Source: a bacterium (lineage in GTDB: Bacteria > SZUA-182 > DTGQ01). Taken from it: a DNA stretch of 32,522 nucleotides. This document shows positions 7,975 through 32,522 of this stretch, piece after piece. Each line of letters begins with the position of its first letter. Position 1 is the stretch's first letter. The DNA is taken from NCBI GenBank assembly GCA_040752695.1, contig JBFMGO010000069.1:1-32522 (forward strand). Reading direction: 5' to 3'. The notes below the pieces were generated by a model. The model was not told the origin of the DNA and did no database searches. It saw only the letters and a list, made by a program, of their open reading frames with translations. A program made the translations under genes and the position numbers.

Positions 7975-8775
7975 TCACCGACTACGTGAATATGCCAGTC
8001 GCCTAACCATCAAGCAGATCATAGCAGCATAGATCAGGGGCTCACTGGTTAAAGTAAGCCCTTCATAATCTTTGCTTAACCGACGAAATCTTCTCAACCA
8101 GCCAAAGGTACGCTCTCCAACCCAGCGACGAGGCAGAACCTGAAACCCTTTTACCTGATTAGATCGTTTGACTATTTGCAAGATTCACTGGCACTGTTCC
8201 TTGACCCAATCAATCAACTTCCCAGCATAAGCACCATCGGGCCCAGATCAATTTCAGTCGAGGGAAGTGCCCAAGGACCTTTTCGAGCACCAACTTTGCT
8301 CCATCCCGATCTTGTACATTGGCAGCGTGCACAACCACCATCAGGATTAATCCCATCATGTCAATCAAGATTATGACGCTTACGCCCTTTGATCAGTTTG
8401 CCAGCATCATAGCCTCTTTGGCCTCTCATTTCAGTGGTTTTGACTGATTGACTATCGATGACACCAGCACTGGGCTGAGCATCTCGTCCCGATTGTTTTC
8501 TCACTTTTTGCCGAAGAGCAGTGTGAAGCTTCTCTATTGTTCCATCCTGTCGCCAGCAACGACAATAGTGTTACACTGTCCGCCAAGGGGGAAGTCATGC
8601 GGCAGTAAACGCCAACTACAATTACTGCGGAGGATGTAGAATATAGCATTGAGAATCTCAATCCAACTCCATAAACGTGGCCTCCCACGACATCCAGATA
8701 CTTCAAATGGAAGATAGGGTTTAATTATCTCCCGTTCAACATTAGTAAGATCTGTTGGATACGCTTTTTTCTCAT
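7975..8775 (-). pseudogene. Frameshifted IS5-family transposase
   Basis: Fragments in different frames: YPTDLT...[18 protein letters not shown]...WRLLPHDFP, and C-terminal [29 protein letters not shown]. There is already a frameshift in the A-run after the ATG. Confidence 0.9.
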
Positions 8776-9188
8776 AGGGGGCTGCTCCAATTAAGGTTTA
8801 TTAATCTGCTGTTTACACCTTAATTCGGAGCAGTCCTACCCAAAAATCATCCAAAAGAACATCCCCATTATTTTTCAGACAGGCTCTTAGGTGTTAGGAA
8901 TAAGTTATGCATAATAAAAAGACTGTTGAAACATGAATGCAATGCAAGGAATTTTATCATTTGAAGATAAAAAAGGGTTCGGTTGGTATCTTCCAAAGAT
9001 TCGATTGATATCTCACATCTAAATTATTATATTTTTTAAGATAAAAAATAAATTTAGCCGAATATTTTATTTCTCCAGCTAATTCAATAACCTTTTTTAC
9101 CTTAAGTATTGAAGAGCATGTATAGGATAATCAGGATTAAGCCTAATTTTAGATACCGGGGACAGGACATCGAACTTAAGCACAGAAA

Positions 9189-10010
9189 ATGATCGGGGAG
9201 GAAAGAATAATGGTTCAATTACATCAAGAATTATCAAACCCGCTGGAAATTAATTACTATGGATACAAATTTCTAAGAGCTTGCTCAAATCAGCCTCAAG
9301 ATGCAGATTCATCTGAGCCGGACCATGAGAAAAGCATAACTGTTCGCAAGGCAGTAACCCTGGACGATATGGTGAAAGTTTTTCAAATCAGGTATGAAGG
9401 GTACAAAAAATATTATAAGAGCGAGGATGAAAACATGGATCAAAATGATTTTTCATCTCATGCATGTTTGCTCCTGGCTGAAGATAAACATCATAACCCG
9501 GTAGGTACCATAAGAATTCTCGATCGAAGATATGGGAAAATAGAGCTCGATAATTTCGTTAACCTTGATTCTTTTCTCCCGGAAGGCAAGAGCCTGAATG
9601 TTATTGAAGCGACTCGCTTCTCCATTCCAAATCATCTAGATTCCAAATTAATCAAGATGTTACTCTGGAAAGCACTTTTTCTTTATTGCCAGGTAAATCA
9701 CATAGATACTATAATCATGTCAGCACGTCCTGCTGCCGCCCGTTCTTATCGATGTTTACTTTTTGAAAATGTTGGCTCTTTAGGAGTGTACAAACACCCA
9801 TTGCTGGGAAATTTGGAGCATCAGACCTACAAGTGCATTATTTCAGAAAAGAAACATCAAGCAAAGGAGAAGAACTGGCCACTTTATCAGTTTTTTTTCG
9901 TTAAAGATCATCCAAATATCAAATTGGATTGTTTTAAATTATATAATCATGATAATAATGCTTCCGAATTATCTATTCAAGAAAAAACAACGGGAGTATG
10001 CATAAACTGA
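9189..10010 (+). CDS. FeeM-like N-acyl amino acid synthase / GNAT-fold acyltransferase
   Basis: Pattern VFQIRYEGY ... PVGTIRI ... VIEATRF ... AARSYRCLLF, matching the FeeM/LuxI-like acyl-ACP-using fold; alternative start ATG 9210 after GGAGG. Confidence 0.7.
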   Translation: MIGEERIMVQLHQELSNPLEINYYGYKFLRACSNQPQDADSSEPDHEKSITVRKAVTLDDMVKVFQIRYEGYKKYYKSEDENMDQNDFSSHACLLLAEDKHHNPVGTIRILDRRYGKIELDNFVNLDSFLPEGKSLNVIEATRFSIPNHLDSKLIKMLLWKALFLYCQVNHIDTIIMSARPAAARSYRCLLFENVGSLGVYKHPLLGNLEHQTYKCIISEKKHQAKEKNWPLYQFFFVKDHPNIKLDCFKLYNHDNNASELSIQEKTTGVCIN

Positions 10011-10230: not shown

Positions 10231-11127
10231 ATGAAAAAGATTTCCGCAATTATCATCTGTATGCGAGAGGAAGGAAATATCCAACAATGTCTTAAGAGTA
10301 TCAATTTTGTCGATGAAATCATTATCATAGATTCCGGAGCCACAGAAAGAACTCTGGAAATCTGTAAGAAGTTTACTGATCGAATCGTTCGTCATCCATG
10401 GCCGAGTTACAGGCAACAAATGGAATATGCCAGGGATATAGCCAAAAACGAATGGGTGCTCAGCCTGGATGTAAACGAGGCGGTTTCGGAGAAATTAAAG
10501 GAAAATATCATCTTCGCTCTTGAAAAGGATCATGGCAGGTATGCCGGTTACCGGATGAAACGGCAGTATTTTTATTCGAACCAACAGGTAAACCATTGCT
10601 GGCATCCGGAACTGCAAATCCGGCTCTATAGGAAATCCAAAGCGCAGTGGGTCAGGAGAAATCAGCACTATTCGGTAGAATTGGATGGCAGATGCCGGGA
10701 TTTGAAAGGAGACCTGAAGTATTCTCCCTATCAGGACTTGTCACAGTACCTTCATGCCGTTGATTCCCGCTCCTCCATGAGAGCCAGGGAAGAATTTGAA
10801 AAAGGAAAGCCGGAGTACCCCTCTGGCCTTGTTTTCAGTCCGTTGTTTTACTTCGTTAAAGCCTATGGATTGAAGCGAGGGTTTTTGGATGGAATGCCAG
10901 GATTGGTAATTTCCGTACTTGAATCATATGGTCGCTTTTTGGAATCGGCGAAATTATGGGAAATGAGGAATGCCGTGTCAGCCGATTTCCTGCACTCGGT
11001 TCCCCTGAATCGTTTTCAGTATTATCTTGAGAAGATCAAAGGGATCATGTTCCCGGAAAAGCGCCAGCGCCATGAATCCCTTTGGAAAACAGCAAGGCTC
11101 CAATCAGCACAGGAGGATCATACTTGA
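10231..11127 (+). CDS. Family 2 glycosyltransferase (WaaE/KdtX-like) with a non-canonical DxD motif
   Basis: ISAIII...EEGNIQQCLKS...DEIIIIDSG, EWVLSLDVNE, C-terminal YGLKRGFLDGMPGL; GAGG RBS. Confidence 0.85.
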   Translation: MKKISAIIICMREEGNIQQCLKSINFVDEIIIIDSGATERTLEICKKFTDRIVRHPWPSYRQQMEYARDIAKNEWVLSLDVNEAVSEKLKENIIFALEKDHGRYAGYRMKRQYFYSNQQVNHCWHPELQIRLYRKSKAQWVRRNQHYSVELDGRCRDLKGDLKYSPYQDLSQYLHAVDSRSSMRAREEFEKGKPEYPSGLVFSPLFYFVKAYGLKRGFLDGMPGLVISVLESYGRFLESAKLWEMRNAVSADFLHSVPLNRFQYYLEKIKGIMFPEKRQRHESLWKTARLQSAQEDHT

Positions 11128-11236: not shown

Positions 11237-14200
11237 ATGAAGCTCGTTACCGGAAGTGGACGTAAGATGGATAAGCAAGAGCCGGCATTGCAAAAGAGAG
11301 TTACTGGTAAGGGAACGGACATAGCCATTATTGGAATAGCTTGCCGTTTTCCGGACGCTCAAAATTACCAGGAGTTTGCTCACAACTTGCTGAAAGGGGT
11401 CAATTCGATCCGGGAGATCCCCCCCTCCCGATGGGATATCGAGAAATATTATTCTCCCGACTTCGATGAGCCCAATAAAAGTATCAGCAAGTGGTGCGGC
11501 CTCATAGATGGCATCGATCAATTCGATAATCAATTTTTTGCCATTTCTCCACGGGAAGCCAATAATATGGACCCGCAGCAGCGCCTGTTACTGGAAGAAA
11601 CATGGCATTGCATTGAAAATTCTGGGGTTCCCTTACGTCAACTTCAGCAAAAAATTACCTCGGTGTACATCGGTGTAATGGCTACCGATTATCATCAGGA
11701 AGCCTCGAATCCGAACATAATCACCGATAGCTATGCCTGCCTTGGGAATTACGAGTGTATTCTGGCCAACAGGCTCTCGTATACTTTCGGGCTTCAGGGA
11801 ACCAGCATATCGATCGATGCAGCCTGTGCATCTTCGCTGGTCGCTCTGCACCAGGCCAAAAGCTCTCTCATCGTGGGAGAAAGCGAATACGCCCTGGCCG
11901 GCGGCGTTTCCCTGGATTTTCATCCCTGGAAGTATATTTCCTTTTCCAAATCCCGGATGCTGAGCCCGGACGGGCAATGCAAGACCTTCGATATAGACGC
12001 CAATGGCTATGTTCCGGGAGAAGGGGTGGGAATTGTTCTCCTGCAGCGTCTTGAGGACGCTCTTGCGGATGGCAATCATATTTATGGGGTAATCAAAGGA
12101 TCAGCGGTAAACCATGGGGGGAAGACCCTCTCTATTACCGCTCCACGGGTGGAATCGCAAAAGAGCGTGATTGTACGCGCTTACCAGGATGCGGGGCTGA
12201 ATCCCGAAACGGTAACCTACGTTGAAGCCCATGGCACAGGAACCTCGCTGGGCGATCCCATCGAGATAGAATCCCTGACGCAGGCGTTCCGGGAGTATAC
12301 TCAGGATGTGCAATTTTGCACAATCGGTTCGGTCAAGACGAATATCGGCCACCTCGAGGCTGCGGCCGGAATTGCAGGCGTTATCAAGGTCGTGCTGATG
12401 ATGCAATACCGGAAGATACCGAAGAGCCTGAATATAAAAAAATTAAACCCGATTATCAATTTTAAGGCTTCCCCCTTTATGGTGGCTACCGATGTGGAGC
12501 GTACGCCTCATCCTGGGACCGAAGCAAGTGACTGGCATCCACGGAAACCGGAATTACCCCTGCGTGCCGGAGTAAGCTCCTTCGGGTTTGGCGGTGTAAA
12601 CTCCCACGTCATTCTGGAAGAATACAGGGAAGCAGTCAGTCAGGAAATTGATCGTGAGGAAAACCACCTCTTTCTTCTTTCCGCAAAATCTTCGAACAGT
12701 ATGCACAACCTTATCGAGGAGTGGAAGCAATTCGTTAACAGCGAAATATTCTCCCGCTACAGCTTGCGGGACGTTTGCATCACTCTGAAAGTCGGGCGGG
12801 AAAGCTTACCTTACCGTTACGGCGCTCATATCCGTAACAAAGAGGAACTGAAGGAATTATTAGGACAGGCTTCATCCTCTCTCCCCTCTATTCCCAGGCA
12901 AACGAAAAAGTATTGGTGCTTACGGATCGGCAATTTATCCTTCGAAAGCATGGAGCAGTTCCGGGGGTATTTAGAGAGATTCGAGCTGTTCAGGCAGAAC
13001 CTCGAAAAAGTCGTACACTGCTTCCTTTCGATATCGAAAGACTTCCTGGCCATCCCATCGAGGGAAGGGCAAACTTTAGAATCAGAAAGTACGACCCAGG
13101 GAGGAGCACTCCCCGCAGGGCAGGCAGAATTTCTCAAGAGCTTTTACCATGATGCATGGGCTGAACAGACCAGATCTCTTTATTCGTTTATGATCGCCTA
13201 TGCAGGTATCTGCACGTTAAGAGATCTCGGTTTTAACCCGGATGTCATCACTGGTGAAAAAGCCGGTGTAATGATGGGGCTGGTTTTGAGCGGCATCATG
13301 AAACTGGAGGATGCCCTGGCAGTCCTCAGTAAGCAAAAGGGATTGAAAGAGGTCGAGTTTACCCGGCCCGCTATTCCTTATTACGATTCCATATGCAAAA
13401 CAACGGTGATGCCCTTTCATTTCGATAGTAATTACCTTCTTCTTCTCGTTGATGAGCTTGGCAGGCAGAACAAACTCCTTGGGCAATTACTGGTAGACGG
13501 GATTTTCTATGCCCAGCAAAAGGATGCACAGCCTGTGCAGCCTGATAAAGATCAGCAGCAACAAACCCTTCTTGGCCAACTGCTTATACAGAACGGTGCT
13601 CTTAGTAAAGAGCAGTTGGAAAATGTTCTCGCTCTGCAAAAAAAGACGCATGATCTGCTTGGAGTTCTGGTTGTAAGAGAAAGGTATTGCACTCCGGATA
13701 AATTGACAGAGGCTTTATACCAGCAAGATGTACTGCGCTACTATGTACAGGAAGTATTTCATCACTACGTCGATCAAGCCAGATTACTGAACGGTGGCCA
13801 GTTTACCTTTAAAAAGTTTTTAGAAGAATGGAACGTCGTTCTCAAAAAGTCAGGGCATGATCTTCTGCAGTTGCTCTACGATGACCATCTCCTTTCCCAG
13901 CGAGGAGGCAGGCTCAGAAATGAAAAGTTACTGCTGATGATCATCATCATGAATTGCCTTCGCAAGCTCAACCAGAAATGGAATCTGACGGAGCCGCGTC
14001 TTGTCGAGGAGAAAAGGTTCTATGAGTTATTGGATTTAGTCACTGACGAAGTGATGACAAAAGAGGACCTGGTAGAGCTTTTCCTCAGTGATAACCCGGA
14101 TTACGCCGCTATAGCCCATAACCTGAACAAAAGGCAAATAAACAGGAACTTGAGCAATGAGTATAGATATATAAAAGGGTTAAACCCTAATGTCAGGGAA

Positions 14201-17200
14201 ATTGAAGATGTTTCGAGCTGGCTTATTCAGGCTATGGAAATAAAAAATGTCCTGCCTGAAGACACTATGGCCTATCTTCCTATCGCTCACATCGCCTTTT
14301 TCGAGACCGGATTATTCAACGAACCCGTACCTTTCGAAGGCGCGATACACCTTAAGGCAGTACGGAACATATGTGAGCTGTTTACCGACAGCCTGCTTCA
14401 ATTATGGCTGCATGGAGTCGATATCCAATGGGAAAAAATTTACCCTGAGGGATCATATAAAAAACCCGTTTTGCCTGTCTATCCATTTGACCGGAAATCT
14501 TTCTGGCTGCCCCGGCACGATCAGGATGGTCAAAGGGATCACAAAGATCAAAAAGGACAGAAAGGTCAGGGTTATCAGAAAGATCAGAGCTATCAGAAAG
14601 ACCAGATATGTCAGAAAGATCAGAAGGATCGGATACGCAGGGGGGATACGCAGGATGAAAGCCATGGCCGTGCTGAAAAAAAGCCCGTGCAGCAATTCCG
14701 GCACCTGGATCATGAGGTATTCAGCTACGAGCGCATTATTTCCCCCTGTGACCCTATCATTCAGGACCATGTGATAACGGGAAAATCTATCATCCCTGGA
14801 GCTTCGTTAATCGAGTTTGGGCTTGATGCCGTGCAAAAAACCTTACATCGGAAGATGCCGCAGAGCGCACCTGTTCACACCTTGCAGAATATTTTCATTC
14901 AAAATCCAGGCATTGTGGAAACAGAAATGGCTTTAGTGCTGGAAGTCACTCCCGATGAAAAGCGGTTTGCAGTGAAAAATGGCGCAGATATTTTATGCAG
15001 CGGCAAGTATGAGGCAGCCACAGGAAAAGAGGGGGCGGGGATGGCCTTCCCGCCCCTTGACTTTGCGTCTTTCACTCACAATTCACCCCTTGATATTGAA
15101 GATATTTATGGAGCATTGGCGGCAAAAGGCTATCACTATAGGGATGGATTGCGGGTAATGAAAAGCGTTTGGAAAACTGATCGCGGCTTTCTCATCGAGC
15201 TTAAAAGAATCCCTAAAGAGGCAGGACAGACAACATCCCTGAACCCGAGGATTCTGGACGGGATTTTTCAGGCAGCCTTGGCAGTCGAGTATCTGGAAGG
15301 ACGGATGCCTGAGGACAACGCGCTCTATGTTCCTTATTATATAAAATCCTTTCTCATTCCGGGTGAAATGAAAGATCGCTGCTTCATTTGCCTCGATCAC
15401 CAGGATAGCCAAAGAAAGGGTCAGGATATGAGTGTCCAGCTTCGGGCCTATGATGCTGCGGGTGAAGGCGTTTTTTGGATTCAGGACATGATTTTCAAAA
15501 GGGTATCGAACCAGTTTTTAATGCGGTCACCTCAAGATGTCGGCCTGGCTGAAACTGGTCTGGCTGCTACCGGTCTGGCCGACACAAGAGCATATCAACA
15601 CAGGCAAGAGGTAGATCCCGGCTCCCACCAGGCAGTATATTACTATACGCCTGTCTGGATCGGGAACCGGCTGAAAAGTACGGCTCCCTCTTTCGAGGGA
15701 GCGATGGATGGCGATCCTGTTTCCCGGCCAATCCGGCCCGTGGCCATGCTCCTTATGGGCGAAAGTGATTTGAGCGGATTATTGTCTCAGGCGATAGCTC
15801 AGAAATATCAGAAGGCTTTTTTCATCAGCCCGGGAGCCGCTTTTGCCAGAGAAGGCGACAGCCGTTTTTCCATCGACCCACTCTGTGAGCAAGACTATGT
15901 GAAGTTAATACAAGCTGTCGATGACCAAACCGATGGCAGTACGGGGCACTATGATATCTACGCTCTAGGGGCTTATGAGCCTCTCCTTTTTCCCGGCCTT
16001 TCTCTGCAAGATCTCAGGGAAAAACAGGAAAAGGGAGTAAACAACCTGTTTTTATTAACAAAAGCATTAACCAGGATTCATCCCCGATATACCGTTACCA
16101 TGGTGATAAGTACTGACCGTGTTCATGTAGTCGAACCTCAAGACAGGGGCGAGGGATACGTTTTCGGAGGACTCTTCGGCTTAGCCAAAACGATAACCCT
16201 GGAAAATCCCAGGATAAAAATAAAAATGGTTGATTTTGGCCGCGATAGTCTGCTCTTACCCGAAAAGGCACGTATCCTCCTTGACGAGGGATTTTCTCAG
16301 GAACGTTCAGAACCCGTAGAAATAATAGCCTATCGCGAAGGGGGACGATATGTCCGTACCCTTGAACCAGTATTTTTAGATTCCCGCTCTGGCGGGGCAC
16401 AAGCCTCATCCTGTAACCACGAGTCCCTTCTTAAAGATAGCGGCGTCTATCTTCTCATTGGCGGCGCCGGCGGATTAGGAATCAAAGTGGCTGAGATGAT
16501 CAGTAAACAGGTTAAGGCCAACCTCATTCTCCTTGGAAGATCGGCCTTACAGCCTGAAAAACGGCGCCGAATCGAACAACTTAAGACCTATGGCGGTGAA
16601 ATTCTCTACCTTCAGGGGGATGTAACCAGTCTGGAACAAATGATAAAACTTCTGGAAATAGTCAAATCCAGATATGGAGCTCTCCATGGTGTGATTCAGA
16701 CGGGGGGCGTCCTCGAGGATAAACTCCTGGTGAGTAAGGATTGGGAATCATTCCAGAGAGTGATGGCCCCGAAGGTACAGGGCACCATGATCATAAACGA
16801 GTTGACGCGGACGGAACCTTTAGATTTCTTCATGGTTTTTTCATCAATCGTTTCTCTTTTGGGTAATGTCGGCCAGGCCGATTATGCAGCAGCCAACAGT
16901 TTCCTGGATGCGTTCATTCATTACCGGGCCCGGAACGAGTATCCTGGTAAGAGCTTAAGCATTAACTGGACACTCTGGGCCGAGGGGGGAATGGGTATCA
17001 ATGAGTATGTAAGGAAAAGTTTCGAAGCCAGAGGATTACCGCCAATTTCTACTCATGATGGCCTGAAAGCTCTCGATCGGATTATCTGTCACGCTCATGG
17101 GGCACAAACAGTGCCAGGCGAATGCTCTTTTGAGGCTCATGCCACACCGTATGAACTGCCGTGCCAATTGGCCGTATTAGCTCAAAAATTCATGAAATTT

Positions 17201-17212
17201 GAATCATCTTAA
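11237..17212 (+). CDS. PKS1: KS - degenerate AT with MshEN-like insert - DH - KR (no ACP)
   Basis: KS triad DAACASS (Cys codon 11825), HGTGT, NIGHLE; AT-like segment with GEKAG in place of GHSxG (13253-13267); DH HVITGKSIIP and LDGIFQ; KR GGAGGLG, VLED, YAAAN. Confidence 0.92.
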   Translation: MKLVTGSGRKMDKQEPALQKRVTGKGTDIAIIGIACRFPDAQNYQEFAHNLLKGVNSIREIPPSRWDIEKYYSPDFDEPNKSISKWCGLIDGIDQFDNQFFAISPREANNMDPQQRLLLEETWHCIENSGVPLRQLQQKITSVYIGVMATDYHQEASNPNIITDSYACLGNYECILANRLSYTFGLQGTSISIDAACASSLVALHQAKSSLIVGESEYALAGGVSLDFHPWKYISFSKSRMLSPDGQCKTFDIDANGYVPGEGVGIVLLQRLEDALADGNHIYGVIKGSAVNHGGKTLSITAPRVESQKSVIVRAYQDAGLNPETVTYVEAHGTGTSLGDPIEIESLTQAFREYTQDVQFCTIGSVKTNIGHLEAAAGIAGVIKVVLMMQYRKIPKSLNIKKLNPIINFKASPFMVATDVERTPHPGTEASDWHPRKPELPLRAGVSSFGFGGVNSHVILEEYREAVSQEIDREENHLFLLSAKSSNSMHNLIEEWKQFVNSEIFSRYSLRDVCITLKVGRESLPYRYGAHIRNKEELKELLGQASSSLPSIPRQTKKYWCLRIGNLSFESMEQFRGYLERFELFRQNLEKVVHCFLSISKDFLAIPSREGQTLESESTTQGGALPAGQAEFLKSFYHDAWAEQTRSLYSFMIAYAGICTLRDLGFNPDVITGEKAGVMMGLVLSGIMKLEDALAVLSKQKGLKEVEFTRPAIPYYDSICKTTVMPFHFDSNYLLLLVDELGRQNKLLGQLLVDGIFYAQQKDAQPVQPDKDQQQQTLLGQLLIQNGALSKEQLENVLALQKKTHDLLGVLVVRERYCTPDKLTEALYQQDVLRYYVQEVFHHYVDQARLLNGGQFTFKKFLEEWNVVLKKSGHDLLQLLYDDHLLSQRGGRLRNEKLLLMIIIMNCLRKLNQKWNLTEPRLVEEKRFYELLDLVTDEVMTKEDLVELFLSDNPDYAAIAHNLNKRQINRNLSNEYRYIKGLNPNVREIEDVSSWLIQAMEIKNVLPEDTMAYLPIAHIAFFETGLFNEPVPFEGAIHLKAVRNICELFTDSLLQLWLHGVDIQWEKIYPEGSYKKPVLPVYPFDRKSFWLPRHDQDGQRDHKDQKGQKGQGYQKDQSYQKDQICQKDQKDRIRRGDTQDESHGRAEKKPVQQFRHLDHEVFSYERIISPCDPIIQDHVITGKSIIPGASLIEFGLDAVQKTLHRKMPQSAPVHTLQNIFIQNPGIVETEMALVLEVTPDEKRFAVKNGADILCSGKYEAATGKEGAGMAFPPLDFASFTHNSPLDIEDIYGALAAKGYHYRDGLRVMKSVWKTDRGFLIELKRIPKEAGQTTSLNPRILDGIFQAALAVEYLEGRMPEDNALYVPYYIKSFLIPGEMKDRCFICLDHQDSQRKGQDMSVQLRAYDAAGEGVFWIQDMIFKRVSNQFLMRSPQDVGLAETGLAATGLADTRAYQHRQEVDPGSHQAVYYYTPVWIGNRLKSTAPSFEGAMDGDPVSRPIRPVAMLLMGESDLSGLLSQAIAQKYQKAFFISPGAAFAREGDSRFSIDPLCEQDYVKLIQAVDDQTDGSTGHYDIYALGAYEPLLFPGLSLQDLREKQEKGVNNLFLLTKALTRIHPRYTVTMVISTDRVHVVEPQDRGEGYVFGGLFGLAKTITLENPRIKIKMVDFGRDSLLLPEKARILLDEGFSQERSEPVEIIAYREGGRYVRTLEPVFLDSRSGGAQASSCNHESLLKDSGVYLLIGGAGGLGIKVAEMISKQVKANLILLGRSALQPEKRRRIEQLKTYGGEILYLQGDVTSLEQMIKLLEIVKSRYGALHGVIQTGGVLEDKLLVSKDWESFQRVMAPKVQGTMIINELTRTEPLDFFMVFSSIVSLLGNVGQADYAAANSFLDAFIHYRARNEYPGKSLSINWTLWAEGGMGINEYVRKSFEARGLPPISTHDGLKALDRIICHAHGAQTVPGECSFEAHATPYELPCQLAVLAQKFMKFESS

Positions 17213-17255
17213 GGATCGAAAGATCATTGCCTAAGAAGTCATAAAGAATATCTTA

Positions 17256-17271
17256 TGGCAAAAAATTTGCA
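17256..17271 (+). promoter_or_regulatory. Putative sigma54 -24/-12 promoter
   Basis: TGGCAAAAAATTTGCA with exact GG-N10-GC spacing, intergenic, about 50 bp upstream of the TTG at 17320 and its GAGGAG RBS. Confidence 0.55.
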
Positions 17272-17319
17272 TTAATCTTCATTATCTCCCCTATTCCAAA
17301 AGGTAAGAGGAGCTTTCGA

Positions 17320-20300
17320 TTGGAGATTCATTTTCTGGAGATCCATAGTTACGAAAGTCACAAGGAAAAACATGAATACCAAGGGACGGGAAAAATGGTG
17401 AATGAAAAAATGAGAATCATCCAGGTAGAGAATTATCTTGCAGCCATAATCGCATCTAAAACAGGCAGCACACCTGAGGGAATCAGTAGAGAAGAATCCT
17501 TTTTCTCTTTAGGGATAGATTCGATTATCTTGCAGGAAATCATGGGTGAGTTGGGTAAGAAGTACGACCATCTGCCACCTACACTGCTGTTCGAATATCC
17601 GAATATTCAGGAACTTGCAGAACACCTGGCAGGGCAATCAGTTGAAGATGCTTCAGAATTTAACGAGGATGAGCCTCTTTTTCAGGACAGCCAAAGGGGA
17701 GTATCCATGCAGCCCAAGGAGCCCTCACAGTCTCAACCCCTGAGGCCCGGCGCGCCGCTGCAGGCTCAGGAGACCCTGCAGGCTGAGAAGAACAATGTAC
17801 TGCAAAACAGCCAAGAAGGAGTTCCTGTGGAAAAGGAACCGCCTTTAGTCCCTCCGCCGGACTCCTTAAAAAAAGGGGAGTCAGTTACCCCTGTCTCTCA
17901 GGTTGAAGAAATTTCATTGTTCCCGTCCGATACTTTTTCCCCTGGTGATTCAAATACTTTTTCCCCTGGTGACTCAAGGGATGCCAGCAGCTTCCCTCAG
18001 GGTGATTTAAAGAACACGGTTTCTCCCGTGTCCGCACGGGGAAACCAAACGAAAGAGCCATTGTCCTCATCCCACCAGCCGTCTATCCAGATGGGAGGGG
18101 TCACTCGCCAGCAGGGGTATGAAATCGCTGTTATCGGCATGAGTGGACGATTTCCCAAGTCTCCCACCATCGATGCATTCTGGCAAAATTTGATCGAAGG
18201 CAGAGACTGCATTGAGGAGATTCCCAAAAGCCGCTGGGAGCATGACCGGTATTTTGATCCAGATCCGGCAAAACCGAACAGGTCTTATGGCAAGTGGGGC
18301 GGATTTATCGAGGATATAGATAAATTCGATCCGCTCTTCTTCGCTATTTCACCCCAGGAGGCTGAGCAGATGGACCCCCAGCAGCGGCTGCTTTTAGAGT
18401 GCGTATGGGAAACCATGGAACATGCGGGCTATGGAAACCGAAGCCAGTATAAGGACAAGGTTGTCGGCCTCTTTGCCGGTGCCATGTGGAATGAGTACTC
18501 ACTTATTGCCAATCAAGGTGGCTTTTTGAAAGACCTCTACTGCGGACCGGGTTCGCTCTACTGGGCTATTGCCAACCGTATTTCATATATTATGGATTTT
18601 AAAGGGCCCAGCATTTTGCTCGATACGGCCTGTTCATCCTCTCTCACAGCGGTACATTTAGCCTGTCAAAGCATTCTGAGCGGCGACTGTGATATGGCCA
18701 TTGCCGGCGGCGTTAACCTGTCGTTCCACCCAAGTAAATACGTTTATCTGAGCCAGGCCGGGTTTCTCTCCAAGGATGGAAGATGCAGAAGCTTCGGTAT
18801 CAACGGCACCGGATATGTGCCTGGTGAAGGGGTGGGAGCCGTTCTCTTGAAGCCCCTCGATAAGGCTCTCAAGGACAAAGACCATATCTATGGAATCGTT
18901 CGAGGTTCTTCGATGAATCATGGAGGGAAGGCAGCAGGCTTTACCGTGCCCAATCCAGAGGCGCAAGCCCGCCTTATTATCAAAGCCTTCGAGCGGGCCA
19001 ATATCTCACCTGAACAAATCGGATATATAGAATGCCACGGGACCGGGACATCTTTGGGAGATCCTATTGAAATTAAGGGCCTTACCAGGGCGTTTAAAAA
19101 ATATACCAACAAAAGGCAATTCTGTGCCATCGGATCTGTCAAGTCAAACGTGGGACATCTGGAGGCAGCAGCGGGGGTGGCCGCCTTAATCAAGGTATTG
19201 CTCTCTATGGAGTATAACAAAATACCCAAGAGTATCCATAGCGAAATAAAAAATCCCAATATCAATTTCGAGGAGACTCCCTTCTATGTGGTCAATGAAC
19301 AAAAAAAATGGATATCCACTCCCTCAAGGCCCAGACTGGCAGGAATCAGCTCTTTCGGGGCAGGGGGCTCTAATACACACCTTATCGTAGAATCTTTCGA
19401 AGGGAAAAAGGCCGGCACCTCCAGAAGTACCTATAGCGTATACGCAGGGCCCCAAAGGCAGGACCCCCAGATTATTGTGCTCTCCGCCAGAAAAGAGGAC
19501 AGGCTGAAAGCTTACGCCGCTAAGTTAGTCGAGTTCCTGGAAAAAGGGGACCCGGCCCTTTACGCCAGCGGCCAGGCTGGAAGCTGGCAGTCCCCGACCC
19601 TTTCCGAAATTGCCTACACCCTGCAGGTCGGACGGGAGGCGAAAGAAGAACGGATAGCCCTGGTAGTATCGAGCATGGAGGAACTGCGTGAAAAATTAAC
19701 GCACTATGGCCAGGGAGCAAAAGACATTAAGGGTTTTTATAAAGGGAACATAAGAGCGAATAAACAGGGTGTAGAGTCTTTGGTTGATGGAGAGGAAGGA
19801 CGGGAATTTTTAAAGGTTATCGTTAAAAACAAAAAGCTCGACAAACTCGCCCAGTTGTGGGTATCAGGAGTGTTCATAGACTGGAGCCTGTTGTATTCCG
19901 ACCAGATCCCCTGCCGGACTGCGCTGCCCACTTATCCCTTCGCCAGGGACCGGTACTGGATTCCGGATTCTGACCCCATCACTATTACAGCCACAACAAT
20001 AACTCCTCCTCCTTCCTCTATTACTCCTGCCGGTAATGGCATCGGGAGTAAACAATGCCTGGCGGCCAAACTTCATCCCTTGATCGGTCAAAATATCTCT
20101 ACCTTAAAGGAACAAAAATTTTCAACGCTCCTGACCGGAGATGAATTTTTTCTCGAAGATCATGTGGTAAATAATCAAAAAATGCTGCCGGGGGTTGCCG
20201 TTCTGGAAATGGCGCGGGCAGCAGCCGAGATTGCCGGAGAAAGGAAGGTTCAGAAGCTGAAGGATATTGTCTGGACCAGGCCTGTTACGGTGGGTAAAAC

Positions 20301-29300: not shown

Positions 29301-31389
29301 GCTCTGGAACATTGTCCGTCCGGGCAATATATTCGGCGAGGCGAAAAGCGGACTCTATCCCCTGGAGATGAGCGGCTCCGCCAGTATCTTCCATAGATTA
29401 TTCGAATTGATTATTAAATCCGGCATCGCTGCATTCGGCAATAATTATTTTGACATCACTCCCGTTGACTATATTGCCAAAGCCATACTCTTTCTGGGAT
29501 TAAAGAGAAATTCCTTCCGCGAAACATATCATCTGCTTAATACTGACAAAAAGCATTGGTATGAAATTATCAATCTGCTCAATGCCTATGGATATAAAAT
29601 AAACCTGGTTCTGGTTGATGATTATTTGAGGATGGTGCATCAGGACAGTTTGCCATTGGATGAGGAAGTCGCGCCCGAGTGGCTGAATCTGATGAAGTAC
29701 GGTTTTGCAAACAAGGAATTTTTTATCAACGATGGGTATGCCGATGCCACGTATACCCAATCTCTCTTAAAAGAGGAAGGCATCATATGCCCGAAGATTG
29801 ATGTAAAACTACTCGGCACCTACCTTGAGTATTACGCTTCAAAGGGTATCATTCCACTGCCGCCCAGGCCGGATGGCCAGGAAGAATCATCCCTGACGGC
29901 ATCATCCAGGCCAGATGGACAAAAGGAGGAGCCATCCGGGCAGCAGCTTCGATCAGCACCCGGGAAAGCTCATGGAAATGACCGTGAGGAGGGGAATGGG
30001 CTGCGCGGAAAATCGGCTGCTAATAATACGCCTCCTGATAGAGGTCCAGAATTAAAGGAGAAGACCATGAAAAGCAATGCGTATGAATTTATTATCGTTG
30101 GTTCAGGAGCGGGTGGAGCCACCATGGCCAGGGAATTGGTTAAAAAAGGGAAGAGAGTCCTCGTCGTAGAGCAAGGCAGGCGTGAGAAGAATATCGGGGG
30201 ACTCATGAATAGTTTAAGGCACTTTGACCACCATAAAATAACGCTATGGCCCAAGGCATCGAAAGAAGGGGTATTCCTCTACAGGGCGGTCATGGCTGGA
30301 GGCTCCACCGTGGTTTCGTGCGGTAACGGCACCCGGTGTTCGGAGGAACAATTTGCAGCTTTCGGCATCAATCTCGATGCGGAATTCACTGAAGCGGAGA
30401 AAGAGATGAACATCGCTCCCTTCAATATGAAATGGCTGTCCAAAGGTTCCAGAAAGATCCTCGAAGCATCCATCTCGCTGGGCTATAAGATGGAGCCGAT
30501 GCCCAAGTTTATGCGGTACAATAATTGCCGCAGGTGTGGTACGTGTTATATGGGGTGCCAATACAATGCGAAATGGACGGCGTTGGATTACCTGGATGAA
30601 GCTATAAAGGGTGGAGCCGACGTCATGTATGAAACCGCTGTCGAGCGGGTTCTGCATAAGAACGGCAAGGCCATAGGAATATGCGCCAAAGGGCCAAAGG
30701 GGCAGATCGTAATCCCCGCGGACGCGGTTGTCCTGTGCGCAGGGGGGCTGGCGACCCCTGTAATCCTCCAAAAATCAGGCATTGAAGAGGCTGGGTCAAA
30801 CCTTTTTGGAGATTTGCTGGTGAATACCTATGGGGTTGCAAAAAATCTCAGCCAGACAGGGGAACCTTCCATGGCACTTCTGGATAATGAATTTCATGCA
30901 AGCAAAGGGTTTATCCTCTCGACCTGGCCTCAGCCGTCAAGAGTTTACCGGTTTGCAGAGGCGGGGATACCAGGCATGCTCCTTCCCCCGGACCGGACCC
31001 TGGGAATCATGACCAAAAGCGCGGATGATCCGACCGGCCAGGTATTCCCCGATGGAACTTTTTCCAAAGCAGTGACTGAAAAGGACCGGGCACGGTTGCA
31101 AGAGGGCATAGAAATCTCCAAAGAGATACTTATAAGGGCAGGAGTGGACAGTAAGTCCATTGTGGTCGGTAATCCTGCGGGAGCCCACCCCGGCGGAACC
31201 GCCGCTATCGGCAAGATTGTGAACCGTGACCTGCAAACGGAAATCACTGACCTTTATGTCTGTGATGCCAGTGTCTTCCCGGCATCGCTTGGTGCGCCTC
31301 CTATCCTGGCCATCGCGGCTCTGGCCAAACGATTGGCGAAAGCTCTGGCATCGAAGCAGAGCGCAGCCGCGTACCAGAGTGCAGCCTAG
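17320..31389 (+). CDS. PKS2 (trans-AT type): ACP-KS-DH-KR-ACP-KS-DH-KR-ACP-thioester reductase-GMC oxidoreductase
   Basis: ACPs GIDS (17512), GFDS (22810), GVDS (28162); both KS have DTACSSS/HGTGT/GHLE; DHs HVVNNQKMLP and HNVKGQAVLP; KRs GGAGGLG/YAYGN and GGAGGIG/YTAGC; R domain TGPTGILG...YQETK (about 28740-29860); GMC IIVGSGAGG, CRRCGTCYMGC, AHPGGT, VCDASVFP (30067-end). No AT domain. Start could also be ATG 17395. Confidence 0.93.
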   Translation: MEIHFLEIHSYESHKEKHEYQGTGKMVNEKMRIIQVENYLAAIIASKTGSTPEGISREESFFSLGIDSIILQEIMGELGKKYDHLPPTLLFEYPNIQELAEHLAGQSVEDASEFNEDEPLFQDSQRGVSMQPKEPSQSQPLRPGAPLQAQETLQAEKNNVLQNSQEGVPVEKEPPLVPPPDSLKKGESVTPVSQVEEISLFPSDTFSPGDSNTFSPGDSRDASSFPQGDLKNTVSPVSARGNQTKEPLSSSHQPSIQMGGVTRQQGYEIAVIGMSGRFPKSPTIDAFWQNLIEGRDCIEEIPKSRWEHDRYFDPDPAKPNRSYGKWGGFIEDIDKFDPLFFAISPQEAEQMDPQQRLLLECVWETMEHAGYGNRSQYKDKVVGLFAGAMWNEYSLIANQGGFLKDLYCGPGSLYWAIANRISYIMDFKGPSILLDTACSSSLTAVHLACQSILSGDCDMAIAGGVNLSFHPSKYVYLSQAGFLSKDGRCRSFGINGTGYVPGEGVGAVLLKPLDKALKDKDHIYGIVRGSSMNHGGKAAGFTVPNPEAQARLIIKAFERANISPEQIGYIECHGTGTSLGDPIEIKGLTRAFKKYTNKRQFCAIGSVKSNVGHLEAAAGVAALIKVLLSMEYNKIPKSIHSEIKNPNINFEETPFYVVNEQKKWISTPSRPRLAGISSFGAGGSNTHLIVESFEGKKAGTSRSTYSVYAGPQRQDPQIIVLSARKEDRLKAYAAKLVEFLEKGDPALYASGQAGSWQSPTLSEIAYTLQVGREAKEERIALVVSSMEELREKLTHYGQGAKDIKGFYKGNIRANKQGVESLVDGEEGREFLKVIVKNKKLDKLAQLWVSGVFIDWSLLYSDQIPCRTALPTYPFARDRYWIPDSDPITITATTITPPPSSITPAGNGIGSKQCLAAKLHPLIGQNISTLKEQKFSTLLTGDEFFLEDHVVNNQKMLPGVAVLEMARAAAEIAGERKVQKLKDIVWTRPVTVGKTPQLVYACLHTQGHTGSHGGMVAYEVITDEEDNQRISHAQGKIIYESQENTRESQGNTHQDVVNIEEVKKRCTDIKDSTACYRLFRTKGFAYGPRFQAIQKLWSTGTEALSFLVLPLDSSHGADGFHDFELHPSLMDGALQTVIGLLGANDADSIYLPFALGEVELIRPLVSPCYAYGAMIGDRNAVNTASSRVKSFNILIVDEAGHVLVRIKDFSLRALSMHLKEGVPFTGQETSGHRNTQILSYRPVWEKLESGIRSLDREQSGHILIFDTNEEVYDAFRNKLAVREDGRVQVTLVKPGAGFKDLGNDALGDHVYKINPGQKGDYVQLLEVLKGKNLMPGSIIYLWSQENFSSNAEILSFLLERGIYSLFFLTQALMEQKSKGKIRILCAYTASSDQPQPQYAAFSGFARTVCRENPRFSYKIIEIQTLSLAQSAPFSPRSASRPEAAFTTALTVSRKVDLLLREVQAGVEDEGTLEIRYDESGQRWVKVLREFDLEEESAAGKMTYTFGGLEAGSTITLKNRGVYVITGGAGGLGFIFAEYLARAVKARLLLSGRSDLTFKKEAKIKELKASGSEVVYIKADIARLEDARMLIAEAKARFGKINGIIHCAGVVRDSLLVRKTKEEMDAVLAPKVFGTVYLDEASGSENLDFFVLFSSITAVMGNQGQCDYAYGNSFMDAFAAMREGLRNKGIRSGKALSINWPLWKEGGMRVDEQTEEFLAKTTGMRALSTKAGLSAFVKGLTLSDSQFVVTEGDRQKLARTLGVAESPALHASMVREVSTIQSPGGISGEPAQERKKEAGLLPGIQKDVIQIVSDILRVDRDEVHLDEDMSDYGFDSISYTVFANRINEKFNLEITPAIFFEHPTIGSFTAYLCHEYQDSFLRHHHLDGAAHDSTAGIVESDLRDTAESSLKDTAQEWSADERFFEEASIEESSFGQAPYEEWRFGKDPERGEGVRQFLSSQEKAGQVENGQAKATEPEAIAIIGMSGVMPQSEDLEAFWKNLEEGKDLITEIPRDRWEWEKYYGDPNSEVNKTRVKWGGFMKEVDKFDALFFGISPREAELMDPQQRIFLETVWKTIEDAGYKPSDFSGTKTGVFVGAATTDYHELLAGSPNSGGAQASPYSYRIEAHTSTGRFHSITANRISYLLNLHGPSEPVDTACSSSLVALHRAVQSLRSKDCDAAIVGGVNVILTPTLYISFSKAGMLSEDGRCKTFDKKANGYVRGEGAGALLLKPLSKAEADGDHIYAVIRAVSENHGGHANSLTAPNPNAQAELISSAYEEAKIDPSTVSYIEAHGTGTTLGDPIEINGLKKAFGDLYKKWNKPTPRVPHCALGTVKTNIGHLETAAGIAGVLKVLLAMKYKKLPATVHFQELNPYIQLQGSPFSIVKETRPWDCLRDENGQPVPRRAGVSSFGFGGANAHVVLEEYTKVLPREDRIESQTPHIIVLSAKDKERLKVYAAKMAEFIRNAVAGEAAAGAPGVNDPGAGVPNDSGAGNAGGSPAAIGTAGISLADVAYTLQTGREEMEERLAVVASDMAELADKLTRYCRERTDQEGTDIENLFVGNVQQGKAKRDLFIDDDDQEELLHILIKNKRLAKLAQLWVSGVKIDWKSFYQTSTQEAQALPSCPRRISLPTYPFARERYWIPEGLKGQVPQGHGRGDNGHDHDDERQGLHPLIDKIVPSLSLHQGVVFQKTLLDTDVIVRDHNVKGQAVLPGAGYLEMARAAVSQVMDNQKIRPGLSQIVWLRPLAVQEGKKEVRIVVTGRDGNVQYEFQSIDNGAVIVHAKGMASFALQTSSSRTEGDGDQWVSIEEIKARCTRQIAKEAIYSRFQQTGMNYGPYFQGLSRIWLNDDEALGHLIIPGGYENELKKYALHPALIDATLQTVSGFYEKTPLTLLPFAIDKVEILHPLKTQGYAYVKAFGNHRFSMAILNETGLVCVKLHDVVMRELKTVPGSKTVQEPETVQVPEAVQGLKEVRGQDDDARGQRPETGSHRPEPEDRKGGLRVGGGEGSDFFYCPRWVESPLPSAQKGEGIKNGKSGNNNGKGGREVILIVHPPQSFGLGKALSEAHRYDEVIEIELGTETGQRSGNQWQIDAKDPFALDRCIAQLADLHLTDLHCIYFLGGIQGPKTDDDKGDDLDALERAQERGVISLFRLIKALGGHNLIQPILQLKVITNDVHQISSEQVVNPYAASLFGFTRVMVREYLAMEASCIDISLRGIGDVPGKGDVEGIKPLVKAILTEPGSRKGEEVAIREGKRYVRTLVPITLPAVIDAGKAAFRHQGVYVILGGAGGIGLELCRYLAENYQAHLVLLGRGDLDDKRKEKISRIESKGGRVLYVRADASDYSSMTAAIEKARSRFGKINGVIHSAIVLKDMILENMDEASFRMALTPKVRGSMTLYKAVQGEALDFMMFFSSAVSFFGNMGQSNYTAGCTFKDAFARYLNQREGYPVKTINWGFWGSVGVAAASEEYKRRLTALGAQSIEPDEGMEAVRQVLGNPVEQIVAIKAQDFLLERIGVDLHHHMVIDGSSGEITLEERKQGKQVQAPLTPATFPSESGRPRGGRGAEPSQAPQDTAGGQKDAKRRYIEEKIVENIRTCLGMSAQKIDFAKPFAEYGVDSILGLELIGKLNMVFGIALKTAVIFNHANVNDLSRYIYDKYGEKITDDTLPKANAGEEPAANVGEERVIRTPEQAPVSKPPAMTTANSIFQPAAEAKDIRQAGGDRQTCRDQQAIQTGGDRQATQAGGGKQVRDDRQAGGDRQQFKGGKQAGEDGYEKQDKQGEETDIGLGRLKYQTKPVVCKNNPFTFHNIFLTGPTGILGGYLIKELLETTTAQIYCLIRAQGITHGLERLRKILISYGAQDRVLDALNHRVVPIIGDVSKANFGLLEMEYLHLANAIDCTIHIAASTNLIMPYDYLAPINVQGVKNIINFALKTKQKYLIHVSSYHVMADVIYRSNFAFTEQHFDVGQKFAKMGYQETKFEGERLVREASQKGLLWNIVRPGNIFGEAKSGLYPLEMSGSASIFHRLFELIIKSGIAAFGNNYFDITPVDYIAKAILFLGLKRNSFRETYHLLNTDKKHWYEIINLLNAYGYKINLVLVDDYLRMVHQDSLPLDEEVAPEWLNLMKYGFANKEFFINDGYADATYTQSLLKEEGIICPKIDVKLLGTYLEYYASKGIIPLPPRPDGQEESSLTASSRPDGQKEEPSGQQLRSAPGKAHGNDREEGNGLRGKSAANNTPPDRGPELKEKTMKSNAYEFIIVGSGAGGATMARELVKKGKRVLVVEQGRREKNIGGLMNSLRHFDHHKITLWPKASKEGVFLYRAVMAGGSTVVSCGNGTRCSEEQFAAFGINLDAEFTEAEKEMNIAPFNMKWLSKGSRKILEASISLGYKMEPMPKFMRYNNCRRCGTCYMGCQYNAKWTALDYLDEAIKGGADVMYETAVERVLHKNGKAIGICAKGPKGQIVIPADAVVLCAGGLATPVILQKSGIEEAGSNLFGDLLVNTYGVAKNLSQTGEPSMALLDNEFHASKGFILSTWPQPSRVYRFAEAGIPGMLLPPDRTLGIMTKSADDPTGQVFPDGTFSKAVTEKDRARLQEGIEISKEILIRAGVDSKSIVVGNPAGAHPGGTAAIGKIVNRDLQTEITDLYVCDASVFPASLGAPPILAIAALAKRLAKALASKQSAAAYQSAA

Positions 31390-31603: not shown

Positions 31604-32522
31604 ATGAAAAGAATACTGTTTGCCACCTTGCTATTGAACTTCGTTATCGGTTTATCATTCAGCACACAGGTTTTAGCCAATGGGGTATTGCTGGAAAGTG
31701 TGGGGCCGGTTTCTACGGGAAGAGGAGCCACCAATATCGCCCATTCGGACACTGGCAGCATGGTTTATGATAATCCGGCAGGGCTGACTCGTCCTGCGAG
31801 CGACAGGATAGAATTCAACGCTGATTTTTTCTCCTTCTCCATGCATTATCAAGATGCGGATAATGACGAGGAGGGCAAAGAGCCTCTTTTCATTCTCCCT
31901 TCCCTTTTTTATACGAAGCATTTCGATGAGCTTCCCATCGGGTTAGGTGTGGGGATCTTCAATTCAGCCGGATATTCTACAAAATACGATCTGTATTATC
32001 ATGGTAAACAACAGGAATATTCTTCCTATAGCTCGCTGAGCAAGCTGTTGGTGGGGGCAGGATACAAGATCACGGATGGGGTGTCTTTCGGCATGGGGAT
32101 TGGAGCTTCCTACAGCAAAATAGAATTAAAGATGCCCTATACCTTCCAAAATCCAGACCTGGCAAGTAAAATCCCTGCTACTGCTTTTATCGACATGGAT
32201 GCGGATGCCTGGTCTTATACCTGGAACATGGGGATGCAATGGGACATGTCCTCGAAGACCACTGTGGGGCTCGCCTACAGGAGCCAGGATTCTTTTGATA
32301 TGCAGGGAAAATTCGATATGGATGTCCCTGCCCTTGGCAATCCACCATATAATGTGCCGAATACCTCGGCCCACTATGATCTTGACTTTGACTTTCGCTG
32401 GCCCCAGAGTGCGGGCCTGGGACTGCTCCATCGATTAACAGACAGACATATACTATCCTTTGATGTTATGTGGATCGACTGGTCTTCAGCTTTTGACGAA
32501 TTGACCCTGAAACTTTCAAATG
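31604..32522 (+). CDS. OmpP1/FadL-family outer-membrane transporter, truncated by the window edge (absent from the ORF track)
   Basis: My translation: MKRILFATLLLNFVIGLSFSTQVLA signal peptide, then NGV...STGRGATNIAHSD...YDNPAGL (NPA motif), GLAYRS, WPQSAGLG, WIDWSSAF; no stop seen in the parts I translated. Confidence 0.85.
   Translation, partial: MKRILFATLLLNFVIGLSFSTQVLANGVLLESVGPVSTGRGATNIAHSDTGSMVYDNPAGLTRPASDRIEFNADFFSFSMHYQDADNDEEGKEPLFILPSLFYTKHFDELPIGLGVGIFNSAGYSTKYDLYYHGKQQEYSSYSSLSKLLVGAGYKITDGVSFGMGIGASYSKIELKMPYTFQNPDLASKIPATAFIDMDADAWSYTWNMGMQWDMSSKTTVGLAYRSQDSFDMQGKFDMDVPALGNPPYNVPNTSAHYDLDFDFRWPQSAGLGLLHRLTDRHILSFDVMWIDWSSAFDELTLKLSN

Follow-up and report, generated by a model that had tools for sequence, protein, structure and literature searches.

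A MshEN-type N-subdomain, a candidate cyclic di-GMP receptor, lies inside a serine-less acyltransferase fold of a modular polyketide synthase

The 32,522-nucleotide stretch of DNA analysed here, called the window (contig JBFMGO010000069.1 of bacterial assembly GCA_040752695.1), encodes a polyketide synthase (PKS) on two consecutive polypeptides, PKS1 and PKS2. A segment of 53 residues within PKS1 (aa 778-830, positions 13568-13726) is a genuine MshEN_N module, or GSPII N-subdomain. MshEN_N is a 53-residue four-helix unit that binds one molecule of cyclic di-GMP (c-di-GMP) in MshE, PilF and NfrB. A first-pass annotation, made from the sequence alone, had pointed to such a unit inside PKS1; the peptides and coordinates that it gave are reproduced letter for letter by translation of positions 13472-13726 of the plus strand, as is the spacing of 24+5+24 residues (aa 778-801, 802-806 and 807-830). 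The module interrupts a domain with the fold of an acyltransferase (AT), in a region of about 600 PKS1 residues, between the linker that follows the ketosynthase (KS) and the dehydratase (DH), that has no Pfam match at all. The features of PKS1 and of its gene cluster are collected in Table 1.

Table 1. Coordinates of PKS1, its parts and the neighbouring genes in the window. Residue numbers are those of PKS1 unless another protein is named; KR, ketoreductase; ACP, acyl carrier protein; ORF, open reading frame; pLDDT, predicted local distance difference test.
Positions	Strand	Feature	Basis
9189..10010	+	FeeM-like N-acyl amino acid synthase; syntenic with the PKS in relatives	
10231..11127	+	Family-2 glycosyltransferase	
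11237..17212	+	PKS1, 1991 aa: KS, KS-AT linker, pseudo-AT with MshEN insert, DH, KR; no ACP	ORF, translation, Pfam
11318..12436	+	Ketosynthase, aa 28-400; Cys and two His motifs visible in translation	PF00109 2.3e-86, PF02801 6e-44
12530..12865	+	KS-to-AT linker domain, aa 432-543	PF16197, PF22621, PF22336
12890..13471	+	AT-fold domain, N-terminal part, aa 552-745; GEKAG at aa 673-677 instead of GHSxG	Structural alignments from model residue 8; no Pfam match
13472..13501	+	"Half copy" KLLGQLLVDG, aa 746-755	Translation; low model confidence from model residue 201
13502..13567	+	Gln-rich spacer, predicted disordered	AlphaFold model pLDDT
13568..13639	+	MshEN motif 1, LLGQLLIQNGALSKEQLENVLALQ, aa 778-801, helices 1 and 2	Translation, NF053729, predicted model
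13640..13654	+	Five-residue spacer KKTHD, aa 802-806	Translation
13655..13726	+	MshEN motif 2, LLGVLVVRERYCTPDKLTEALYQQ, aa 807-830, helices 3 and 4; R816 at turn; family-invariant C818	Translation, NF053729, hmmalign
13727..14506	+	AT-fold domain, C-terminal part, mostly helical, then post-AT linker (LQLWLHGVD..YPFDRKSFW)	Predicted model, motif positions
14537..14630	+	9-nucleotide tandem repeat; Asp-Gln-Lys-rich linker between post-AT linker and DH	About 10 copies, 65% matches
14708..15514	+	Dehydratase, aa 1158-1426	PF21089, PF14765
15791..16984	+	Ketoreductase and its structural half, aa 1519-1916	PF21394, PF08659
17320..31389	+	PKS2, 4689 aa: module 1 ACP, two KS-DH-KR-ACP modules, thioester reductase, GMC oxidoreductase	
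17434..17628	+	ACP completing module 1, on second polypeptide	PF00550 7e-14; aligns to aa 1864-1952 of fused relative
31604..32521	+	FadL/TodX-type outer-membrane channel, cut by contig end; syntenic in relatives	

Profile searches identify the segment as a MshEN unit. The NCBIfam hidden Markov model (HMM) NF053729 ("cyclic di-GMP-binding domain, MshE-related"; 53 positions, curated cut-off 38 bits) matches the whole PKS1 protein at 46.5 bits (E 2.3e-12) and an 85-residue piece of it at 53.6 bits, both above the cut-off, with E-values for the unit between 1e-12 and 1e-14, so that the MshEN part of the HMM check proposed with the original domain call comes out in its favour. When the window's own genome was searched in six frames, the PKS1 site was the eighth of 16 matches to this model, at 54.2 bits, and its neighbours in the match list were ordinary frames of secretion-ATPase size. 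A phmmer search of the PDB sequences returned PilF first (6f8l_G, E 5.1e-11), followed by isolated GSPII-B chains (2.7e-7 to 4e-6) and MshE (5htl_A, 0.017). The NfrB model NF008411 aligns weakly to the stretch (E 3.8e-5), and the only Pfam signal there is a sub-threshold one, to DUF4388 (E 0.017-0.037).

Structure prediction leads to the same family. An AlphaFold model of aa 545-1150 (model 1; 606 residues, 40-sequence alignment, pLDDT 82.3, predicted template modelling score 0.75) places helices on the unit at model residues 234-241, 247-260, 264-270 and 276-310. An exhaustive structural search with this model aligned residues 234-290 to chain residues 9-65 of MshE with bound c-di-GMP (5htl_B; Z 9.6, root-mean-square deviation [rmsd] 1.8 Å, 57 residues, 35% identity) and residues 234-289 to PilF GSPII-B with bound c-di-GMP (8pdk_A; Z 9.6, rmsd 1.1 Å, 55 residues, 46% identity). 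Model 2, which covers aa 765-850 (86 residues; pLDDT 85.5), was built from 18 PKS-embedded sequences, leaving out the canonical MshE-type ones; in a Foldseek search with it, ranks 1-16 were all N-domains of PilF GSPII, MshE or PilB (rmsd 0.6-3.5 Å, with 0.6-0.9 Å over 52 columns in the top rows), and the probability fell steeply below rank 16. Both models superpose on c-di-GMP-bound PilF and MshE at 0.6-1.8 Å over 52-57 residues. With an HMM match above the cut-off and a predicted fold like that of MshE and PilF, the domain call stands, for the N-subdomain only; after Q830 the PKS1 chain goes back to the AT-fold scaffold.

The residues that hold the ligand in known receptors are present in PKS1. 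The unit described by Wang et al. in 2016 consists of two 24-residue motifs and a five-residue spacer: position 1 stacks on guanine, Leu2, Leu17 and Leu21 build two Leu triangles, the backbone of Gly3 and of the next residue reads the guanine edge, Gln24 contacts ribose and phosphate, and Gly10 forms the helix-helix turn, the Gly between helix 3 and helix 4 being described as highly conserved (PMC5013675). Changes to the hydrophobic contacts cost more than ten-fold in affinity, and changes at Arg9, Asp12 and Gln32 at most five-fold (PMC5013675). Both PKS1 motifs carry the contact residues (L779, G780, L794, L798 and Q801; L808, G809, L823, L827 and Q830), and the full sets of retained positions listed in the first-pass annotation are correct, namely L2, G3, L6, I7, G10, L12, L17, L21 and Q24 in motif 1 and L2, G3, V6, V7, L17, L21 and Q24 in motif 2. 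The turn Gly is G787 in motif 1, but motif 2 has Arg (R816) at position 10.

The first position of each motif is Leu, which fails the RLG motif of 2016 and its relaxed [RKPN] form and fits the (R/K/L)LG form of PMC11731258. The first-pass annotation had expected that replacement of Arg by Leu might weaken or abolish binding, an expectation that measurements on Thermus PilF contradict. PilF GSPII-B, with Lys and Leu at its first positions, has a dissociation constant (KD) of 6 nM; Arg introduced at these positions lowers the affinity 25-fold and 4-fold, and the K167L variant, with Leu at both, has a KD of 2 nM (PMC11731258, Neissner et al. 2024). The same report widens the consensus to (R/K/L)LG and treats a hydrophobic first residue as a predictor of very high affinity. 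Resurrection of binding in PilF GSPII-A needed repair of Q24 in both motifs, of motif 2 position 1 and of G3 (PMC12002112), positions that are among the residues present in PKS1. We consider it probable that the PKS1 unit binds c-di-GMP in the manner of PilF GSPII-B.

The insert recurs at the same place in related synthases. A word-indexed search with aa 560-1140 returned 23 proteins at E <= 0.001, and all seven that cover at least 92% of the region carry the unit (NF053729 46-103 bits, with one at 32.7, below the cut-off). When aa 545-1150 were searched exhaustively against 1.84 billion representatives, 2083 matches reached E <= 0.001, and 112 of these reached E <= 1e-30; most of the best 150 of the 2083 match only the helical part of the scaffold, at about residues 680-960 of each protein, after the first KS. 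A local profile made from nine canonical units of the window's own genome matches 18 of 166 stored proteins. The census of inserts counted the residues that separate the scaffold halves in each of the 149 stored proteins spanning the site; the insert is present at the same place in 18 of these PKS relatives, a fraction that does not measure prevalence, since the stored proteins were chosen by similarity to an insert-containing query. The halves are 77-98 residues apart in 15 unit-bearing proteins and 152 apart in two proteins with tandem units; protein P0168 has 90 residues at the site and a unit recognised by eye. In protein P0060 the site is filled by 86 residues (about aa 935-1020) that form a degenerate version of the unit, without Gly3 in either motif; judged by this sequence, it is likely a natural loss-of-binding variant. 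The site holds only 3-31 residues in 130 of the 149 relatives, and exactly five in 88. The two tandem-unit proteins, P0007 and P0008 (source name Chlamydiota), contain two complete units each (aa 524-576 and 589-641), with Arg or Lys at motif 1 position 1.

Full-length matches that span the insert were found in three of 40 relatives' genomes (G005, G012 and, in three places, G007), and a scan of genome contigs gave two loci only. Scaffold homologues that skip exactly query residues 70-167, which correspond to the insert, occur in G002, a genome of the same genus, and in G007; the insert-less PKS of G002 looks like a paralog. Genome G007 encodes three PKSs with the insert (G007:C49, G007:C82; loci L015, L019, L020 and L023-L025), and its insert-less homologue, a frame of 1840 aa, follows directly after one of these on the same strand. 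The source names of insert carriers include Ruminiclostridium cellulolyticum (ACL75230.1 / WP_015924390.1), Clostridium estertheticum, a Chlamydiota bacterium, metagenome-assembled genomes (MAGs) of Spirochaetales and Pseudomonadota, and MAGs named only as "bacterium"; none of these source names mentions c-di-GMP. On a FastTree phylogeny of the helical scaffold part (152 rows, with three fragments that lack the site and P0168 counted as "no insert"), the insert label is clustered, with none of 500 shuffles as low. The tree needs nine insert changes, two of them forced by well-supported branches, and 71 of its 148 inner branches are open; because the scaffold tree is poorly resolved, one gain followed by losses and several gains are not separable.

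Conservation was counted with hmmalign over 20 units from 18 PKS proteins. In motif 1, Leu6 and Leu17 are invariant (20/20 each), position 21 is Leu, Val or Ile in all 20, Gly3 is kept in 18, and Gln24 in 15, with Lys in four. Motif 2 keeps Gly3 in 20/20, Gln24 in 19/19, Leu2 in 18/20 and Leu21 in 18/19. The survey of homologues for RLG variants, proposed with the domain call, found Arg or Lys at motif 1 position 1 in 11 of the 20 units and at motif 2 position 1 in none, this residue being Leu in 13, Met in three, and also Pro, Gln, Tyr or Phe, which resembles PilF GSPII-B. The turn Gly of motif 2, correctly recorded as absent from PKS1, is kept in 14 of the 20 units and replaced by Lys, Arg or Gln in six. 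Positions 11-12 of motif 2 (13688-13693, aa 817-818) are an aromatic residue (Tyr or Phe) and an invariant Cys in 20/20; this pair lies outside the canonical MshEN motif, and aliphatic residues take its place in the nine canonical units of the window's genome. Identity to the window is 28-67% in the unit and 24-68% over the whole 606-residue region, indicating that the insert decays no faster than its host.

The host of the insert is a catalytically dead AT. The exhaustive structural search gave the flanking region an AT fold, with Z 18.7 to the KS-AT of Pks13 and 17-18 to GfsA, ClbI, ZmaA, DEBS and others, and about 38 AT or malonyl-acetyl transferase chains matched model residues 8-538 at Z 18.7-10. 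With Foldseek, the 606-residue model yielded weak AT matches only (best E 2.0e-3), and on this model the AT fold and the MshEN unit were both visible only with the exhaustive aligner. GEKAG stands where GHSxG is expected, no conserved Ser or Cys occurs in the nucleophile column among 40 aligned relatives, and Pfam Acyl_transf_1 has no match on the whole of PKS1 or on either flank; the usual post-AT linker motif closes the region. The original reading of the protein as KS-AT*-DH-KR is thereby borne out. As far as the sequence shows, the small AT subdomain seems to be absent, and the helical part seems larger than usual. Serine-less AT-fold domains of this kind after the first KS (12869-14686 in the window) form a widespread family that has no Pfam match, with 112 representatives at E <= 1e-30.

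The insert is bracketed by "..PFHFDSNYLLLLVDE" and "YVDQARLL..QFTFKKFLEEW", and the predicted connections on its two sides differ. Upstream, the Gln-rich spacer has pLDDT below 50 at model 1 residues 201-217, 220-222 and 224-226 (block means 41-49 over 201-230), and coil rather than an extended helix precedes the unit. Downstream, AlphaFold predicts insert helix 4 and the first helix of the remaining AT-fold part as one unbroken helix (model residues 276-310). The half copy KLLGQLLVDG ahead of the spacer, also singled out by the first-pass annotation, is genuine as a peptide, and the near clade conserves it. It is not a recent DNA duplication, for it and motif 1 use different codons at synonymous sites.

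Module 1 of the synthase is divided between two proteins at 17113-17434, with the KR at the end of PKS1 (stop 17212) and the ACP at the start of PKS2 (TTG 17320, preceded by a GAGGAG-type site), leaving a gap of about 100 nucleotides. G012 and G007 encode the entire synthase in a single ORF of about 6050 aa, and the division in the window is either a natural split or an assembly frameshift. The full pseudo-AT with its insert occurs in the first module only, and later modules of the same protein match the post-AT linker alone. Both G007 and G012 keep the gene order FeeM-like synthase, PKS, FadL and 2-oxoacid-dehydrogenase-type acyltransferase; a phosphopantetheinyl transferase and a free AT lie downstream of the syntenic cluster in G012, and the G007 cluster adjoins a MacB/HlyD/OEP exporter. 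Acyl_transf_1 has no match on the window's contig, which ends just past the PKS. On the basis of the domain set and the neighbouring genes, the cluster most likely yields a reduced polyketide lipid or aminolipid for export; a full-text search found no literature that joins N-acyl amino acid synthase, polyketide synthase and thioester reductase. Searches of the genome gave 14 GGDEF matches and 15 other MshE-type motif matches, and the GGDEF matches indicate that the genome can make c-di-GMP.

Two further features of the cluster stand apart from the insert. A GMC-family oxidoreductase dependent on flavin adenine dinucleotide is fused after the terminal thioester reductase (30085-31386, PKS2 aa 4256-4669), which suggests that the same polypeptide goes on to oxidise or reduce the aldehyde that is released. 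At the cluster edge, about 1 kb upstream of the FeeM-like gene, lies a DDE transposase fragment of 68 aa (7975-8181, minus strand), and the GC content around it is lower (0.40 in 8001-10000).

Several observations weigh against a working c-di-GMP receptor in PKS1, or against the strength of the family assignment. The longer Pfam model T2SSE_N (PF05157), also proposed as a check, has no match in PKS1 at E <= 10, and among the 18 proteins matched by the canonical-unit profile the PKS1 unit scores lowest, at 20.3 bits. Neither Foldseek search reached E <= 0.001 (the best value with model 2 was 9.6e-3), and the fold match is not wholly independent of the sequence match because AlphaFold training included MshE-type structures. 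A complete T2SSE_N/MshEN domain has about 145 residues, and its C-subdomain is absent from PKS1, the alignment to 5HTL covering only the 57 residues given above; in PilF, an Asp contact from the C-subdomain raises affinity (PMC11731258). The Arg at the motif 2 turn departs from the conserved Gly. Sequence alone is no proof of binding, because PilF GSPII-A with all six positions restored to consensus remained a non-binder until N-cap and inter-subdomain contacts were removed (PMC12002112), and by analogy the pseudo-AT context could block the ligand site of PKS1 likewise. Finally, a GGDEF search found no diguanylate cyclase within the window.

Some of these points would suit a different role, in which the MshEN fold has been kept without c-di-GMP binding and serves as a structural or docking element for a trans-acting AT, for ACP1 or for a PilZ-like partner, comparable to PilB-PilZ in Xanthomonas. 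The Arg that replaces the turn Gly could be explained in this way, as could the aromatic-Cys pair of motif 2, which lies outside the ligand motif and suggests a family-specific contact. GSPII N-domains that do not bind the ligand are described for XpsE (PMC5013675) and PilF GSPII-A (PMC12002112), the structural search also returned a PilB N-domain in complex with PilZ (7lkm, Z 9.2), and the degenerate copy in P0060 implies that an insert can persist without the motif. However, the positions conserved over the 20 units are the ligand contacts Leu2, Gly3, Leu17, Leu21 and Gln24, no structural role is evident for the two Gln, and XpsE and GSPII-A have lost several contact residues whereas PKS1 has lost none, and we regard a docking role as unlikely.

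A bound ligand might also leave catalysis untouched, either by recruiting the synthase to a partner or site, such as export machinery, or by acting as a permanent structural cofactor. The nanomolar affinity predicted by the Leu/Leu pair would be in keeping with a cofactor, and the authors of the PilF study raise a permanently bound structural role themselves (PMC11731258); as recruitment would lead one to expect, export genes of the FadL type and of the MacB/HlyD/OEP type are found next to the PKS in the window and its relatives. The predicted rigid helix that links the unit to the pseudo-AT beside KS1 would suit allostery at least equally well, however, and no partner for recruitment has been identified; binding without catalytic effect seems to us rather improbable, more so than docking. 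It is very unlikely that the module binds another nucleotide, for example another cyclic dinucleotide: the non-Arg first positions and the family's own Tyr-Cys signature mean that specificity could have drifted, but MshE owes its guanine specificity to the Leu triangles together with the backbone amides of Gly3 and of the residue after it (PMC5013675), all of which are kept. A chance likeness of an amphipathic helical linker can be dismissed. Single relaxed 24-mers do arise by chance in long PKS proteins (three stray single matches in 23 proteins), but the 24+5+24 tandem has no chance occurrence in those 23, and the HMM E-values, the 46% identity to a solved relative and the recurrence in 18 proteins at the same site with invariant contacts exclude chance resemblance.

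The best overall explanation, which we hold with a little more confidence than doubt, is that the MshEN_N module in the dead AT binds c-di-GMP and gates module 1. The host is an AT-less PKS of three modules that carries the insert in the dead AT-fold domain after its first KS, tethered on the N-terminal side by the Gln-rich stretch predicted to be disordered and fused on the C-terminal side, through helix 4, to an AT-fold helix. The proposed site for one c-di-GMP is the one known from PilF GSPII-B, with the two Leu triangles and the two Gln around the ligand; binding would order the bundle, and the continuous helix may transmit the change to the pseudo-AT beside KS1. Chain initiation would then be gated through the access of a trans-acting AT or of ACP1 to the first module, and the exported lipid or aminolipid would be made at high c-di-GMP. 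Taken by itself, control of the assembly line by c-di-GMP binding is a proposal that we put slightly below even. By analogy with NfrB and the cellulose synthases we would guess at activation rather than inhibition.

It is well established that c-di-GMP controls secondary metabolism through transcription factors and riboswitches, and that PilZ, GGDEF I-site and MshEN modules give it direct control over polysaccharide synthases. We tentatively suggest, as a claim that is somewhat harder to sustain than control itself, that the synthases described here are the first assembly-line PKS family in which a nucleotide second messenger acts as a direct, protein-level switch on the chain-initiating module, with a nanomolar receptor in a dead AT turning on an exported lipid at commitment to a surface lifestyle, spread over at least four phylum-level groups by source names. 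If so, assembly-line enzymes would join the direct targets of c-di-GMP, the AT-fold relic that is widespread after first ketosynthases would acquire a function, engineered PKSs would gain a natural ligand-operated switch, and there would be a rationale for "silent" PKS clusters. The PKS clusters of C. cellulolyticum, among which the R. cellulolyticum orthologue may lie, are reported to be silent in standard culture (PMC3250452). The existence of an orthologue in Ruminiclostridium cellulolyticum H10 (WP_015924390.1, unit at aa 720-772), a sequenced, cultivated and non-pathogenic strain, makes the question testable.

What is new in PKS1 is the setting of a known receptor module: the host enzyme is of a new kind, and the module has a novel topological position, internally and within a dead AT. 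The partners of MshEN listed in the main text of Wang et al. are ATPase, glycosyltransferase, REC, HD-GYP, CheA, CheX, cyclase and Ser/Thr kinase, and "polyketide" occurs zero times in that main text (PMC5013675); full-text literature searches, whose scope excludes the supplementary architecture tables of that paper, found, among the papers listed, none that joins a MshEN domain with a PKS. Modular-PKS AT domains and AT-docking remnants resemble the PKS1 host domain in their AT fold and in the KS-AT and post-AT linkers that normally border it, but the pseudo-AT of PKS1 has GEKAG in place of a nucleophile and lacks the Acyl_transf_1 match. The closest solved relative of the insert itself is GSPII-B of Thermus thermophilus PilF (8PDK; K167L, 8PE0), with 46% identity and an rmsd of 0.6-1.1 Å over 52-55 residues. 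Both have the 24+5+24 layout and a motif 2 that begins Leu-Leu-Gly, and the K167L variant shares with PKS1 a Leu at both first positions; however, the PilF domain has a ligand-touching C-subdomain and sits N-terminally on a pilus ATPase, whereas PKS1 has the N-subdomain only, inside another domain, with Arg at the motif 2 turn and Tyr-Cys at positions 11-12. MshE of Vibrio cholerae (5HTL), the founding member, likewise shows the 24+5+24 layout with the Leu triangles and the two Gln in register, and it differs in having Arg at both first positions, Gly at both turns, a C-subdomain and fusion to a secretion ATPase. The nearest functional parallel is Escherichia coli NfrB, in which the module is also carried by a biosynthetic enzyme, a family-2 glycosyltransferase, rather than by a motor or a signalling protein, and in which c-di-GMP binding to the C-terminal MshEN domain allosterically activates the catalytic domain, as its authors conclude (PMC8669469). 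NfrB is a membrane glycosyltransferase that makes a polysaccharide and bears a full, terminal domain, whereas PKS1 is part of a modular PKS and holds its module within the chain.

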